15,047 nt of DNA. It comes from a virus (Duplodnaviria; Heunggongvirae; Uroviricota; Caudoviricetes). Positions 1 to 6,695 of the stretch are shown here, piece after piece. The translations under genes and the position numbers were made by a program. Each line of letters starts with the position of its first letter. The stretch's first letter is position 1. Location: IMG/VR virus record IMGVR_UViG_2529292716_000006; one strand, written 5' to 3'. The notes under the pieces were generated by a model that did no database searches, had not been told where the DNA came from, and saw only the letters and a program-made list of their open reading frames with translations.

Positions 1-287
1 GTCTGGTCTGAAAACATCAATGTCGCGTAAAGGTAACTGTTACGACAACGCTCCGATGGAAAGCTTCTGGGGAACGCTGAAAAATGAGAGCCTGAGCCAC
101 TATCGTTTTAATAACCGGGATGAAGCCATCTCAGTAATACGGGAATACATTGAGATTTTCTACAATCGTCAGCGTCGTCACTCTCGTCTGGGGAATATCT
201 CCCCGGCAGCCTTCAGGGAAAAATATCATCAGATGGCTGCTTAAAAAAAGAACAAATGGTAGTGTCCGCTATTGCCAGTACACCTCA
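1..287 (+). mobile_element. IS600 (IS3 family), partial copy: 3' end only, truncated by the window edge
   Basis: Bases 1-287 are the reverse complement of the orfB-distal end of the two complete 1264-bp copies at 6653-7916 and 11379-12642, ending in the same terminal ...CACCTCA. Opposite orientation to the complete copies. The IS600 name rests on OrfA/OrfB sequence and the 1264-bp length, recalled from memory. Confidence 0.8.
20..244 (+). pseudogene. IS600 OrfB transposase, C-terminal 74-aa fragment
   Basis: The 74-aa translation is identical to the C-terminus of the 272-aa OrfB ORFs at 6696-7514 and 11422-12240. Confidence 0.85.
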
Positions 288-486
288 TCCATCACCGAAA
301 AAAATTGGCTTTTACACCATTGGCGATAAAAGCATTTACCTGTATGACCTACGCCGCATGGATGAAATCATGGAGGCTCTTGATAATCGTTCGTCGATGG
401 ATTGGTGTGTTGCTGTTCATGATATGAATGCAGGGTTTGATGAAAAGATTTTGTTCCCCTCATCAGTTGAAAGCACTGCGGGTTAA
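256..486 (+). CDS. Hypothetical protein, probably a 3' fragment whose original 5' end was replaced by the IS600 insertion
   Basis: The open frame starts inside the IS600 terminus (IS ends at 287), so the annotated Met is unlikely to be native. An internal ATG at 359 could give a 42-aa product. No recognisable family. Confidence 0.25.
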   Translation: MVVSAIASTPHPSPKKIGFYTIGDKSIYLYDLRRMDEIMEALDNRSSMDWCVAVHDMNAGFDEKILFPSSVESTAG

Positions 487-496
487 GGAGTAACAC

Positions 497-664
497 ATGA
501 CCACTATTACCAAAGAACGTATTGAATTGTTCATTAAAAACCCGCTTGAAAACGGGCTTACCCGTGGTGAACAAATGGAACTGGCACGGATTGCGCTGGC
601 ATCGCTGGAAGCAGAGCCGGTTGTGTTCTGGTTTGAAAAATATCAAGAAGGGGCTACGGCATGA
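497..664 (+). CDS. Hypothetical small protein (55 aa), first gene of a coupled three-ORF operon
   Basis: Strong Shine-Dalgarno AAGGAG at 485-490, 6 nt before the ATG at 497. Its stop overlaps the next start (ATGA at 661-664). N-terminus MTTITKER and an IAL-SL-AEP motif are shared with the following 114-aa ORF. It is below the 60-aa cutoff of the ORF track. Confidence 0.5.
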
Positions 665-1005
665 CGACTTTTACCAGAGAGCAGTTAATAGCTCACGCAG
701 AGGAGACTATTGAAGCACAGAGACTGTGCATACCGGGCACAATCGACCATGACATCATCCGCACATATAAGATGGATATTGCTGTTCTGGAAATCGCACT
801 GGTATCGCTGGCAGCAGAGCCAGCCGGTAAATTGCATGAATACAAACCAGTGGGATATCAGCGTCTGGTCGATGAGTTAACCATGCTGGTAAAGCAGTTA
901 ACCTGGCAACTGAGGAAAGCGAAGCCAGACTGCAAATTACCGGATAAGGCGATGAGTTATCTGGAGCGGAACGGACTGATAAGCGTGGAGGATATTTTAC
1001 GATGA
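661..1005 (+). CDS. Hypothetical phage protein (114 aa), paralogous to the upstream 55-aa ORF
   Basis: ATGA start/stop overlap with both the upstream and the downstream ORF. Shares MTTFTREQ and [12 protein letters not shown] with the 55-aa product. Confidence 0.55.
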
Positions 1006-1085
1006 CCTGGCCTGAAGCATTAACAACGGTAGGAATTGCGATGGCGGTGGCGCTGGTGGTGTATTCGATTTGCCGCTGGGGATAA
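1002..1085 (+). CDS. Putative 27-aa single-pass membrane peptide ([27 protein letters not shown])
   Basis: Its ATG overlaps the stop of the 114-aa ORF (ATGA at 1002-1005). The hydrophobic core is long enough for one transmembrane helix. Very short, so speculative. Confidence 0.3.
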
Positions 1086-1296
1086 AAACGGTTTGCGGGA
1101 AAAGGAGAGTTAAGTAGAATTGCAGCGGGTGCTTGAGGCTATCTGTCTCAGGCATGAACACCAAAAGGCAGATAGAGAAAAGCCCCAGTTAACATTACGC
1201 GTCCGGCAAGACGCTTAACATTAATCTGAGGCTCAATCTATGAACGGCAAATCTAGGTTAGCCTCTTACGTGCCGAAAGGCAAGGAGAAGCAGGCT

Positions 1297-1452
1297 ATGA
1301 AGCAGCAAAAGGCGATGTTAATCGCCCTGATCGTCATCTGTTTAACCGTCATAGTGACGGCACTGGTAACGAGGAAAGACCTCTGCGAGGTACGAATTCG
1401 AACCGGCCAGACGGAGGTCGCTGTCTTCACAGCTTACGAACCTGAGGAGTAA
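1297..1452 (+). CDS. hokD: Hok-family type I toxin (HokD/RelF-like), 51 aa
   Basis: Translation MKQQKAMLIALIVICLTVIVTALVTRKDLCEVRIRTGQTEVAVFTAYEPEE matches the Hok/Gef family signature and, from memory, HokD of the K-12 Qin prophage. Shine-Dalgarno AAGGAG at 1282-1287. The track ORF 1240-1452 is an in-frame upstream extension. Confidence 0.85.
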   Translation: MKQQKAMLIALIVICLTVIVTALVTRKDLCEVRIRTGQTEVAVFTAYEPEE

Positions 1453-1522
1453 GAGACCAGGCGGGGGAGAAATCCCTCGCCACCTCTGATGGGTCAGGCA
1501 TCCTCAATGCACCCACACTTAA

Positions 1523-1547
1523 CCCGCTTCGGCGGGTTTTTGTTTTT
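1523..1547 (+). terminator. Intrinsic terminator downstream of hokD
   Basis: Hairpin CCCGC-TTCG-GCGGG followed by TTTTTGTTTTT. Confidence 0.6.
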
Positions 1548-5958: not shown

Positions 5959-6034
5959 GGCCCTTTAGCTCAGTGGTGAGAGCGAGCGACTCATAATCGC
6001 CAGGTCGCTGGTTCAAATCCAGCAAGGGCCACCA
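5959..6034 (+). tRNA. ileZ: tRNA-Ile2 (anticodon CAU, lysidine type), ileX/ileZ-like
   Basis: Hand-folded cloverleaf: acceptor GGCCCTT/AAGGGCC, T-arm GCTGG-TTCAAAT-CCAGC, anticodon loop CTCATAA, 3' CCA encoded. Near-identical to E. coli ileX as recalled. Confidence 0.85.
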
Positions 6035-6041
6035 TCACATA

Positions 6042-6118
6042 CCGCCATTAGCTCATCAGGAAAGAGCGCCAGCCTTCGAAGCTGGCTGCGCGGGGTTCAA
6101 GTCCCCGATGGCGGTCCA
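6042..6118 (+). tRNA. argN: tRNA-Arg (anticodon UCG), argN-like
   Basis: Acceptor CCGCCAT/ATGGCGG (7 Watson-Crick pairs), T-arm CGGGG-TTCAAGT-CCCCG, anticodon loop CTTCGAA, 3' CCA encoded. Confidence 0.8.
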
Positions 6119-6131
6119 TTATCTGCATCAT

Positions 6132-6208
6132 GCGTTGTTAGCTCAGCCGGACAGAGCAATTGCCTTCTAAGCAATCGGTCACTGGTTCGAATCCAGTACA
6201 ACGCGCCA
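6132..6208 (+). tRNA. argO: tRNA-Arg (anticodon UCU, reads rare AGA), argO/argU-like
   Basis: Acceptor GCGTTGT/ACAACGC, T-arm ACTGG-TTCGAAT-CCAGT, anticodon loop CTTCTAA, 3' CCA encoded. Confidence 0.85.
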
Positions 6209-6253: not shown

Positions 6254-6468
6254 TCTCACAATTCAGACGGTTGACAGTTGTCTGTTTTGCGGGGAGTTTG
6301 TTAAAAGAAACTGGCATGGTGAATCCCCCTGTGCGGAGGGGCAATCAGCGAGTAGGTATATGGGATAATCGCGGATTCAGGTGCTGGTACTGAATTCACC
6401 GGGAGGCACCCGGCATCATGCAATGGCACATAGCGCCACTCTCCAGCCCTCTCCGGAGGGGCTTTTCT
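6254..6468 (+). repeat. Structured non-coding module, copy A (candidate sRNA or leader)
   Basis: Shares ordered blocks with copy B (7988-8222): CTCACAATTCAG, GTTGACAGTTG, TTTGTTAAAA, GCATGGTGAATCCCCCTGnGCGGAGGGG, a 6-bp hairpin, TCACCGGGAGGCACCCGGCA, and a terminal GC-rich hairpin CCCTCTCCGGAGGGG followed by a T-run. Confidence 0.45.
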
Positions 6469-6594
6469 GTGCCGGATACATCACAGTTTCTGGAACCTTA
6501 GGTACTACAGTATCAGTCAGGGTGCTATATTTTCAGATGTGATGAAAGCCTGTCAGCAGGCAGGGCGTATCGGAAATGACCCAGTAGAGAAAAC

Positions 6595-6652
6595 GTTGAC
6601 TCAGATACCGGTGCTGAGTTACCGGGAAACCGGCATCACATGACCGCTATCC
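6595..6652 (+). repeat. Structured non-coding module, copy C, 5' part (split by IS600; 3' part at 7917-7951)
   Basis: CTGAGTTACCGGGAAACCGGCATCACATG parallels CTGAATTCACCGGGAGGCACCCGGCATCATG of copy A and the equivalent block of copy B. Its terminator-like hairpin resumes directly after the IS600 target duplication. Confidence 0.35.
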
Positions 6653-6695
6653 TGAGGTGTACTGGCAATAGCGGACACTACCATTTGTTCTTTTT

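Follow-up and report, generated by a model that had tools for sequence, protein, structure and literature searches.

An array of small genes upstream of hok

The window (the whole stretch of DNA analysed, 15,047 nt from the Caudoviricetes record IMGVR_UViG_2529292716_000006) contains three ORFs, encoding proteins of 55 aa, 114 aa and 27 aa, upstream of an intact hok gene (Table 1). Their layout is as described in the original prediction: stop and start codons overlap as ATGA at both junctions (661-664 and 1002-1005), and the first ORF has a strong Shine-Dalgarno sequence, the strongest amongst the three, all of which can be seen in the sequence. The dN/dS ratios of these frames, calculated by the NG86 method on haplotypes from the fetched loci, were 0.21 for the 55 aa ORF, 0.26 for the 114 aa ORF and 0.27 for the 27 aa ORF, values that rule out their being chance ORFs; all three small overlapping genes are real.

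Table 1. Features of the array and of the adjoining hok locus, with positions in the window.
Feature	Position	Strand	Description
IS600, right end	1-287	+	Transposase C terminus, ORF 20-244
phrog_1714 gene remnant	288-486	+	5' end truncated by IS600; mechanical ORF 256-486; PHROG 1714, E = 5e-37, positions 21-87 of 87
Shine-Dalgarno of 55 aa ORF	485-490	+	AAGGAG, 6 nt 5' of the ATG; read from the sequence
55 aa gene	497-664	+	N-terminal helical-hairpin module and little else; PHROG 3323/60; RefSeq WP_000207997.1, 'hypothetical protein'
114 aa gene	661-1005	+	N-terminal helical hairpin, linker and highly conserved C-terminal tail of ~45 aa; PHROG 660; RefSeq WP_000206826.1, 'hypothetical protein'
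Shine-Dalgarno of 27 aa ORF	987-991	+	GGAGG, in the 3' end of the 114 aa gene, 10 nt 5' of the ATG
27 aa gene	1002-1085	+	Predicted single-pass membrane peptide; ATG overlaps the TGA stop of the 114 aa gene
Putative hok promoter	1093-1120	+	TTGCGG-16 nt-TAGAAT; inferred from its position relative to 1127, where the Rfam match and the fold-back pairing begin
hok mRNA unit	1127-1546	+	Fold-back inhibition by pairing of the 5' end (1127-1138) with 1502-1514; terminator stem 1521-1538
sok antisense RNA	1178-1248	-	Coordinates transferred from 933W sokW by alignment
mok frame	1240-1452	+	70 aa; contains hok in the same frame
hok	1297-1452	+	51 aa; matches the whole Pfam Hok/Gef profile (PF01848, positions 1-42 of 42) with E = 3e-23

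The IS600 end at 1-287 is fully (100%) complementary to the termini of two more copies in the window, at 6653-6939 and 11379-11665, and matching E. coli DNA is annotated in RefSeq as 'IS3-like element IS600 family transposase'. Homology with uninterrupted prophages begins at 288/289; the IS600 insertion at 287/288 cuts the array off from the upstream early operon in the window, and would have severed it from its native upstream promoter. The gene truncated by IS600 is 264 bp long when uninterrupted. Uninterrupted prophages have the array after replication and ead/Ea22-like genes, and before hok, DUF968, RusA and Q; E. coli 042 and ABU 83972 are amongst the lysogens whose array is uninterrupted.

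The array is mosaic in structure. The trio sits in the same arrays as the Ea22, ead/Ea22-like, EaA and DUF551 genes of the lambdoid exo-xis region, beside ead/Ea22-like and DUF551 genes, and the families to which it belongs follow the pattern of lambdoid ea-type genes, in which a common N-terminal segment is combined with swapped C-terminal domains. However, the 55 aa and 114 aa proteins match no Pfam family at E <= 1, Ead_Ea22 (IPR025153) and DUF551 included, the latter domain being present only in some of the relatives with the common N-terminal head; and in this type of prophage the array follows the replication genes and does not lie between exo and xis. An analogous mosaic organisation has been published for Ea22 genes (PMC10834534), and Ea22 is reported to favour lysogeny (PMC7093339). 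Such mosaic arrays of small genes beside ead/Ea22-like and DUF551 genes in lambdoid prophages support the third of the readings initially offered for the trio, namely that these are ordinary early-region phage genes.

The 55 aa and 114 aa proteins

Searches of Pfam, NCBIfam and PADLOC gave no match for any ORF in 256-1085. Both larger proteins matched the PHROG profiles 3323, 60, 660 and 5117, the 55 aa protein falling into phrog_3323 (E = 1.3e-19) and the 114 aa protein into phrog_660 (E = 8e-43). They had been thought to be paralogues, which holds for part of their length: the two are 33% identical over 54 residues (pairwise E = 1e-5), but this similarity is confined to the N-terminal module. 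The module formed by the first ~45 residues of the 55 aa protein stands at the front of at least 243 cluster representatives, which are 53-457 aa long and some of which end in a DUF551 or a dATP/dGTP pyrophosphohydrolase domain, and amongst homologues of the 114 aa protein the heads and middles vary, with the C-terminal tail near-invariant. The AlphaFold2 model of the 114 aa protein (pLDDT 78) has helices at residues 6-26, 30-51, 65-87, 95-103 and 109-113; a Foldseek comparison of this model with viral and PDB libraries retrieved nothing below an E value of 0.1, just generic helical hairpins, and a PDB profile search yielded nothing but designed coiled coils, with E > 0.005. Profile searching and structure prediction, which had been suggested as a check on these proteins, gave no informative PDB, Foldseek or family match, and what matches there are lead to uncharacterised families, not to well-characterised early-region proteins. 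On these comparisons the 55 aa and 114 aa proteins are assigned to mosaic phage families without known function (PHROGs 3323 and 660). Some of their relatives carry the database names 'EaA' or 'Eaa protein'.

One reading of the 55 aa ORF, which would be compatible with the explanation favoured below for the locus as a whole, is that recombination between two genes sharing a 5' module left it behind as a fragment consisting of the head alone, without a role of its own. The protein covers only positions 1-58 of the 90-position phrog_3323 profile, its likeness to relatives that run on to 457 aa ends around residue 45, and a 101 aa relative (P0031) has a 55 aa-type head joined directly to the tail of the 114 aa protein. 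However, the ORF is intact in all ten of the haplotypes, in which its dN/dS of 0.21 is accompanied by a third-position excess (4, 3 and 10 variable sites at the three codon positions, from what is little variation overall); it has, as noted, the strongest Shine-Dalgarno sequence of the trio, and the identical protein is a widespread RefSeq entry. We hold it possible, but not probable, that this gene is such a fragment.

Rare database proteins in which the 55 aa is fused with the 114 aa product, or the 114 aa with the 27 aa product, were considered as signs of programmed frameshifting and rejected, being single-member clusters with scrambled junction residues that look like indels.

A conserved gene for a predicted 27 aa membrane peptide

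The third ORF had been described as encoding a one-helix hydrophobic peptide, and the product indeed has a single hydrophobic stretch at residues 7-23 (mean Kyte-Doolittle 2.16), followed by Arg25. There was no significant match to it in Pfam, NCBIfam, PHROGs (searched with five variants) or PADLOC and none in a PDB sequence search; KdpF and a glycine-zipper family gave weak, non-significant profile echoes. A text search of the literature for strings of the peptide sequence found none, and the peptide does not appear in the supplements to the Sakai small-gene ribosome-profiling study. The gene is nevertheless common, occurring in 1,325 of 5,426 complete E. coli genomes (about a quarter) at 1,829 places, with up to five copies each. 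In a stringent species-level scan with a degenerate DNA pattern, it was restricted to Escherichia and Shigella, besides two short contigs (a Segatella MAG and Xanthomonas pisi) that are possibly contamination; the phage matches to this pattern are nearly all to phages of Escherichia or Shigella, and the peptide is present in the virulent Vequintavirinae phage Av-05. Eight of 111 copies (about 7%) are disrupted, hence the gene is dispensable in prophages.

In its size, single hydrophobic helix and C-terminal basic residue, the peptide is like KdpF, AcrZ, MgtS and MgrB, and like TisB, ShoB and DinQ, although it has no significant sequence likeness to any of them; the spacing of small residues in its helix (G11, A13, A15 and A17) is also like that of small single-pass membrane proteins. 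These properties bear on the suggestion that the trio is a toxin-antitoxin (TA) or abortive-infection module of its own, in which the 27 aa peptide would be a membrane toxin checked by the 114 aa protein, the 55 aa protein or both. The peptide does resemble type I toxins in its size and hydrophobicity, it is closely linked to the C-terminal tail of the 114 aa family (78 of the 79 loci with the conserved tail carry its gene), and the neighbouring slot gathers TA cargo, either hok/sok or a ParE-like pair. However, type I toxins have an antisense RNA and a standalone promoter, whereas the peptide has neither a promoter and leader of its own nor a cis antisense RNA and is probably coupled to varied upstream phage genes: on both strands of 950-1100 there was no Rfam family and, in a crude consensus scan that could pass over a weak promoter, no promoter-like site. 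PADLOC and the TA families of Pfam and NCBIfam were equally empty. Elsewhere the peptide is found behind unrelated genes that lack the C-terminal tail, encoding DUF551 proteins, Ea22-like proteins and 933W L0139, hence a dedicated protein antidote is not conserved. Furthermore, the peptide gene closes a long coupled array and is not part of a standalone two-gene cassette, and at 19 of 80 loci different genes that share its head stand in place of the 55 aa gene. These searches gave no positive evidence for an independent module, and we consider it very improbable that the trio forms one. The same replacements, together with the 409 genomes that have the trio as against the 1,325 that have the peptide, led us to reject the trio as a fixed unit.

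It might be argued instead that the frame is not a gene at all, the 84 bp being kept as a lambdoid recombination 'linker' or as regulatory DNA upstream of hok. The segment lies exactly at the mosaic breakpoints 1002 and 1085/1086; its 3' half is almost invariant in DNA amongst E. coli prophages, even at synonymous sites; one reverse-strand frame is open across it; and it is without annotation in both RefSeq records inspected. However, the copies in 933W, BP-4795, PhiR12_1, PhiR5_1 and Av-05 all have exactly 27 codons at DNA divergences of up to about 35%, and divergent copies that differ at 18-28 of 78 positions retain the start, the stop, the 27 codons and the residue pattern W-P-[ED]-A...G...[YF]-S-x-[CF]-R-W-G. 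The dN/dS of the gene is about 0.26-0.27, with dS up to 1-2, and there is an excess of third-position changes (11, 8 and 19 variable sites by codon position), including synonymous switches at Gly11, Gly27 and Arg25, the last being encoded by CGC, CGT or AGA. Both other forward frames contain stops, and the one duplication found, of 6 nt at a single locus, is in frame. A purine-rich stretch like a Shine-Dalgarno sequence is kept behind five different upstream C termini (mostly GGAGG, with AAGGTGA in 933W and GGGGATGA in Av-05), and in these five contexts the start codon overlaps the upstream stop as ATGA in four and directly follows it in BP-4795, such that both features have been recreated in unrelated upstream sequence. 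The gene is also found where hok is absent. The frame is therefore kept in homologous regions, contrary to a concern raised alongside the original prediction, and it is very unlikely that this stretch has been retained as something other than a gene.

The 27 aa ORF is a conserved gene whose product is predicted, from its sequence, to be a single-pass inner-membrane peptide, and which is mostly missing from the annotated records checked. It probably encodes a genuine small membrane protein of phages, which is translated but is usually passed over by automated annotation. A minus-strand ORF at 997-1164 was rejected as a gene, only the portion within the hok leader being conserved in other contexts.

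The hok/mok/sok cassette and K-12 Qin

Both hok and mok are whole, in agreement with the initial description of hokD as intact, and the RefSeq name of the hok product is 'type I toxin-antitoxin system toxin HokD'. Every hallmark of the hok/sok/mok loci known from plasmid R1 parB, 933W hokW/sokW and chromosomal hokD is present at 1093-1546, namely a Hok/Gef peptide, an in-frame mok start upstream of it, a Sok RNA overlapping the leader, and fold-back pairing with a terminator. The pairing between 1127-1138 and 1502-1514 comes from an in silico minimum-free-energy fold, and a slightly shorter stretch of the mRNA unit has a z score of -5.7. The Rfam sok family (RF01794) matches 1127-1302 with 112 bits, the gathering score being 59. 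In 933W, where mokW and hokW are annotated in the same arrangement as mok and hok in the window, sokW is at 2676-2746 on the minus strand of the fetched locus, in a region of 92.8% identical DNA. The putative hok promoter was absent from the output of the consensus scan because its -35 hexamer is too weak.

The mosaic boundaries of the cassette lie at about 1080-1119 on the left and about 1540-1547 on the right. None of the described hok loci includes the three ORFs, which fall outside the hok transcript: the trio ends at 1085, short of both the promoter-like site and the mRNA 5' end (1127). Hence hok/mok/sok is a self-contained type I TA cassette, independent of the trio. Such loci have been found to be enriched in prophages (bioRxiv 10.1101/2025.08.07.668861).

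The lack of relBE had initially appeared anomalous by comparison with K-12 Qin, which does carry relB-relE-hokD. RelBE was not detected upstream of hokD in the window, where there was no Pfam, NCBIfam or PADLOC match in 256-1085, the three ORFs bear no likeness to RelB or RelE, and there was no homology to K-12 upstream of 1283. From 1283 onward, the hok coding sequence, the 3' UTR and the downstream rem-like and ydfU-like genes are nearly identical in K-12 Qin, which is without window positions 1086-1282 (the hok promoter, leader, mok start and sok) and has relBE in their place. Given that the homology starts only at this breakpoint, relBE would have replaced the 5' half of the hok locus, including its promoter, the mok start and sok, to give a derived, truncated relBE-hokD arrangement in K-12. 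The hokD of K-12 is reportedly inactive and truncated. A prophage hokD without relBE, as in the window, is the intact hok/sok form and not a rearranged one, K-12 Qin being the odd one out.

Association of the array with hok

The possibility that the trio is an alternative partner module for Hok is not borne out, as hok has its own Sok, promoter-like site, fold-back structure, terminator and mosaic boundaries. Co-occurrence, which had been proposed as a check, is also incomplete in both directions: 61 of 80 hokD-like viral loci are without the upstream genes, and hok is missing from 23 of the 77 loci with the 114 aa gene. Of the complete E. coli genomes, 4,483 have the hok leader, 1,325 the 27 aa gene and 409 the whole trio. 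The 27 aa gene does directly adjoin the hok leader in at least 1,085 of its 1,325 E. coli carriers, which is more than expected under independence, unless the pair spreads as one recombining block; common ancestry of one junction type would fit such a spread. The putative hok promoter begins 8 nt past the stop codon of the peptide.

It is very doubtful that the 27 aa inner-membrane peptide both marks and functionally interacts with the TA cargo just downstream, for example by tuning the membrane action of Hok, or by serving as a membrane toxin or immunity factor itself. Also very unlikely is a functional tie of the peptide or trio to Hok in particular, through membrane insertion or pore formation or through an effect of peptide translation on hok transcription: the two are both small membrane peptides, the direct abutment is frequent, hok lies within about 450 nt 3' of the peptide across several junction sequences, and 933W-type Stx phages match the window exactly from the peptide ATG into hok behind a different upstream gene, but the peptide gene is absent from the 61 hokD-like loci mentioned above, there are about 10,200 hok-leader places as against 1,829 for the peptide, the peptide is found without hok in ArgO145-type phages, in BP-4795, PhiR12 and PhiR5 (where it precedes DUF4222-xis-int) and in the virulent Av-05, most left boundaries of the hok cassette fall past the peptide stop, and control of Hok by Sok, mok and fold-back is complete without the peptide.

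A mosaic array of accessory genes

The explanation we favour, and regard as likely, is that a mosaic array of small accessory genes in the early operon of a Rac/Qin-type lambdoid prophage has its distal end at 288-1085, the hok cassette being independent of it. The packing of stop on start codons as ATGA would let ribosomes move from gene to gene along the array, whose members may be shuffled amongst phages through recombination in conserved gene ends. The 55 aa and 114 aa proteins are probably soluble and helical, having in common an N-terminal hairpin that is joined elsewhere to hundreds of different downstream sequences; the former would be essentially this head alone, and the latter the head with a conserved C-terminal tail. 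The slot after the 27 aa gene would be a cargo site, occupied in most E. coli prophages by hok/sok, which is an independent type I TA insert with its own promoter-like site, Sok and terminator, and by other cargo elsewhere. The region also illustrates clearly how conserved heads, tails and short linker genes are put together into lambdoid accessory genes, next to a slot that collects TA systems.

The findings leave the current understanding of Hok and of phage biology unchanged. The only mildly new item is the conserved 27 aa membrane peptide gene, the other two being ordinary, uncharacterised accessory genes; about one complete E. coli genome in four carries this 84 bp peptide gene, and neither of the two inspected RefSeq annotations includes it. 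We infer that the peptide is translated by coupling to whatever gene precedes it, that it would sit with its N terminus out and Arg25 in, and that it may bind a membrane protein of the host or phage in early infection or during induction. As the searches assigned a function to none of the three proteins, this role is proposed by analogy with other small membrane proteins. Small membrane peptides often act as regulators of transporters, kinases and cell envelope processes, which makes the 27 aa gene a cheap candidate for small-protein screens.

A coupled gene array and an autonomous hok cassette

Two units make up the region: an array of coupled small accessory genes and, downstream of it, a self-sufficient type I toxin-antitoxin cassette. 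The original prediction described the array accurately: three ORFs, encoding 55, 114 and 27 aa, lie upstream of an intact hok gene and are joined at both junctions by ATGA stop/start overlaps, and the strong Shine-Dalgarno sequence ahead of the first is AAGGAG at 485-490, 6 nt from the ATG. The 27-aa ORF has GGAGG at 987-991, 10 nt from its start. The first two products, proposed to be paralogues, match the same PHROG profiles and have a common N-terminal module (33% identity over 54 residues in a pairwise comparison, E 1e-5); the third is, as suggested, a one-helix hydrophobic peptide, in which residues 7-23 form the one hydrophobic stretch and Arg25 comes after it. All three ORFs open with ATGAC.

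Features of the window, with coordinates and supporting evidence
Feature	Position	Strand	Evidence or remark
IS600 end	1-287	+	one of three IS600 copies
55-aa ORF	497-664	+	direct reading of sequence
114-aa ORF	661-1005	+	direct reading of sequence
27-aa ORF	1002-1085	+	direct reading of sequence
Promoter-like TTGCGG-16-TAGAAT	1093-1120		putative; site not reported by consensus scan
sok match	1127-1302		Rfam, 112 bits
Fold-back pairing	1127-1138 with 1502-1514		RNA fold from 1127
sok antisense RNA	1178-1248	-	mapped from sokW annotation of phage 933W
mok	1240-1452	+	reading frame downstream of array
hok	1297-1452	+	Pfam Hok/Gef, E 3e-23
Terminator stem	1521-1538		downstream of fold-back pairing
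Three tRNA genes, then two STnc100 sRNA matches	5959-6205, 6285-6474, 8019-8228		STnc100 matches 124 and 161 bits
IS600	about 6652-7900	-	middle copy
IS600	about 11378-12650	-	third copy

The hok cassette is an autonomous type I toxin-antitoxin unit, standing apart from the array. Its RNA has the 5'-3' fold-back pairing typical of hok mRNAs, and a slightly shorter stretch gives a folding z of -5.7; phage 933W, 92.8% identical over the hok region, has sokW annotated on the opposite strand. In 80 IMG/VR loci carrying a hokD-like gene, the block of homology that includes hok begins for the most part at window positions 1080-1119 and extends to 1539-1547. In 61 of these 80 the 114-aa and 27-aa genes are both missing upstream, and diverse other genes are found there; hok, in turn, is missing downstream of the 114-aa gene in 23 of the 77 loci that could be assessed. 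Hence the suggestion that the trio is an alternative partner of Hok is not borne out.

The absence of relBE, which accompany hokD in the Qin prophage of E. coli K-12, had been one of the reasons for thinking the trio worth testing. In an alignment Qin is near-identical to the window starting at the hok ribosome-binding site (1283), and there is no homology further upstream; the hok promoter, leader, mok start and sok are therefore missing from K-12, where relBE take their place. The window thus holds the complete hok locus and K-12 a derived one, and the missing relBE needs no special explanation. Further downstream, the first ~30 residues of a 94-aa ORF (1670-1954) resemble the start of K-12 Rem, and also phrog_340; alignment with K-12 DNA extends to about 1690, and the remainder of the ORF varies among loci, hence it looks like another mosaic gene.

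A conserved gene for a 27-aa peptide

The pattern of conservation argues that the 27-aa ORF is a real gene. This 84-bp sequence is found in 1,325 of 5,426 complete E. coli genomes, in up to five copies per genome. Its frame is intact in all but 8 of 111 fetched copies, one of the 111 having an in-frame 6-nt duplication. The disrupted copies (about 7%; loci L005, L030, L031, L066, L082, L084, L090 and, in phage POCJ13, L176 2001-2009) have a 1-nt deletion directly after the ATGA, a TGG-to-stop change at codon 3 or a 1-nt insertion; the deleted copy of phage vB_EcoS-689R5 (L005 3626-3736) is annotated as a 36-aa out-of-frame ORF. Every intact copy examined has exactly 27 codons and the motif M-x-W-P-[ED]-A...G...[YF]-S-x-[CF]-R-W-G. 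Variable sites are distributed 11/8/19 over the codon positions, Arg25 being encoded by CGC, CGT or AGA and Gly11 and Gly27 by three codons each; in pairwise comparisons the mean dN/dS is 0.26 and dS rises as high as 1-2, and the two remaining forward frames contain stop codons. The original concern that this frame might lack conservation is thereby removed.

Searching at the protein level also picked up diverged copies in BP-4795, VT1-Sakai, PhiR12_1, PhiR5_1 and Av-05, the last a virulent 121 kb phage of the Vequintavirinae. The intact Av-05 homologue (L175 2001-2084, MTWPEAFTTVGVVMAVAFAVYSVCRWG) lies behind an unrelated gene of 220 aa, again with an ATGA overlap; in related large phages, database records give the upstream gene the name 'EaA protein'. 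Five upstream contexts are represented (the 114-aa tail, DUF551, Ea22-like, 933W L0139 and the Av-05 protein), all with a purine-rich Shine-Dalgarno-like stretch about 5-10 nt upstream of the start. Four have the ATGA overlap with the preceding gene; in BP-4795 the start directly follows the preceding stop. A scan of species-representative genomes with a stringent degenerate DNA pattern found the gene in E. coli and Shigella only, plus two short contigs filed under unrelated taxa. The peptide has no significant match in Pfam, NCBIfam, PHROGs or PADLOC, and its ORF is left unannotated in both RefSeq records inspected. The residual novelty of the region is this conserved, unannotated membrane peptide gene.

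The 114-aa family precedes the gene in 78 of 79 loci. In 933W-type phages the ATG of the gene (1002) is the exact point where homology to the window sets in, continuing into hok, and in loci without hok homology ends at 1085/1086; thus the gene is a short shared segment at module joints. The slot following it holds hok/sok in most cases, otherwise extra small ORFs and then hok, DUF4222-xis-int (BP-4795-type phages), or, in the hok-less ArgO145-type loci (phage ArgO145, L004 3105-3616; L080 3550-4175), a 99-aa ParE-like toxin together with an antitoxin, encoded on the opposite strand. The slot seems to collect different toxin-antitoxin cargo. The hok leader abuts the gene in at least 1,085 of the 1,325 E. 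coli genomes carrying it; since the most frequent sequence at the junction is identical throughout, this adjacency may be read as the spread of one composite block.

We propose, with modest confidence, that ribosomes reaching the end of the 114-aa gene would restart translation at the 27-aa ORF, and that the peptide would insert into the inner membrane with Arg25 inside and, like other small membrane proteins, act on a membrane protein early in phage development.

The 55-aa and 114-aa proteins

Both proteins, labelled 'hypothetical' in RefSeq (WP_000207997.1 and WP_000206826.1), have no match in Pfam, NCBIfam or PADLOC, and fall into PHROG families of unknown function (3323 and 660 respectively). 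An exhaustive profile-free search of protein cluster representatives with the 55-aa protein found at least 243, of 53-457 aa, sharing only its first ~45 residues, with 71-98% identity over this head in the best 150; some end in a DUF551 or dATP/dGTP pyrophosphohydrolase domain. Conservation of the head (497-640) among otherwise unrelated proteins is in keeping with a hotspot of recombination at the genes' 5' ends. Proteins homologous to the 114-aa protein are listed as 'hypothetical' or 'prophage protein' in E. coli, Shigella and Salmonella; they vary in their heads and middles and have a near-invariant C-terminal tail. A parallel pattern of heads with swapped tails has been described for the Ea22 proteins of phage lambda and of Stx phages (PMC10834534), although neither protein here matches the Ead_Ea22 profile. 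The AlphaFold2 model of the 114-aa protein (pLDDT 78) confidently places a helical hairpin, made of helices 6-26 and 30-51, in the head; three further helices follow after a linker. Fold and PDB searches returned only generic hairpins. Polymorphism in both genes is consistent with coding constraint (dN/dS 0.21 and 0.26 respectively). Rare database fusions of 55+114 or 114+27 aa (P0001, P0002 and P0011), frameshifted at the ATGA junctions, are probably indels or sequencing errors.

Prophage setting and IS600 insertions

In matching E. coli prophages, the trio comes after the genes for repressor/cro, replication and DUF977 and a series of ead/Ea22-like ones, and precedes hok, a DUF968 (YdfU-like) gene, RusA and the Q antiterminator, which upholds the more cautious original reading of ordinary early-region phage genes. 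Homology to intact prophages begins at 288/289. The first IS600 truncates the phrog_1714 gene just upstream of the trio, so that the array is decapitated, being separated from its upstream operon. Three IS600 copies within 15 kb, with 100% identical ends, suggest a Shigella-like or otherwise IS-rich host. Two related loci, L070 and L025, have the order 27-aa gene, hok, phrog_1714 gene, 55-aa, 114-aa and 27-aa genes, hok, hence the 27-aa/hok unit is tandemly repeated; L025 alone has an IS600 between the first hok and the phrog_1714 gene. This tandem arrangement probably extends leftward of the window start.

The tRNA/STnc100 region lies between Q and a 617-aa esterase gene, the position that stx occupies in Stx phages; there is no ORF of stx size. 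The STnc100 matches flank the middle IS600, as do 88-nt repeats that are 82% identical.
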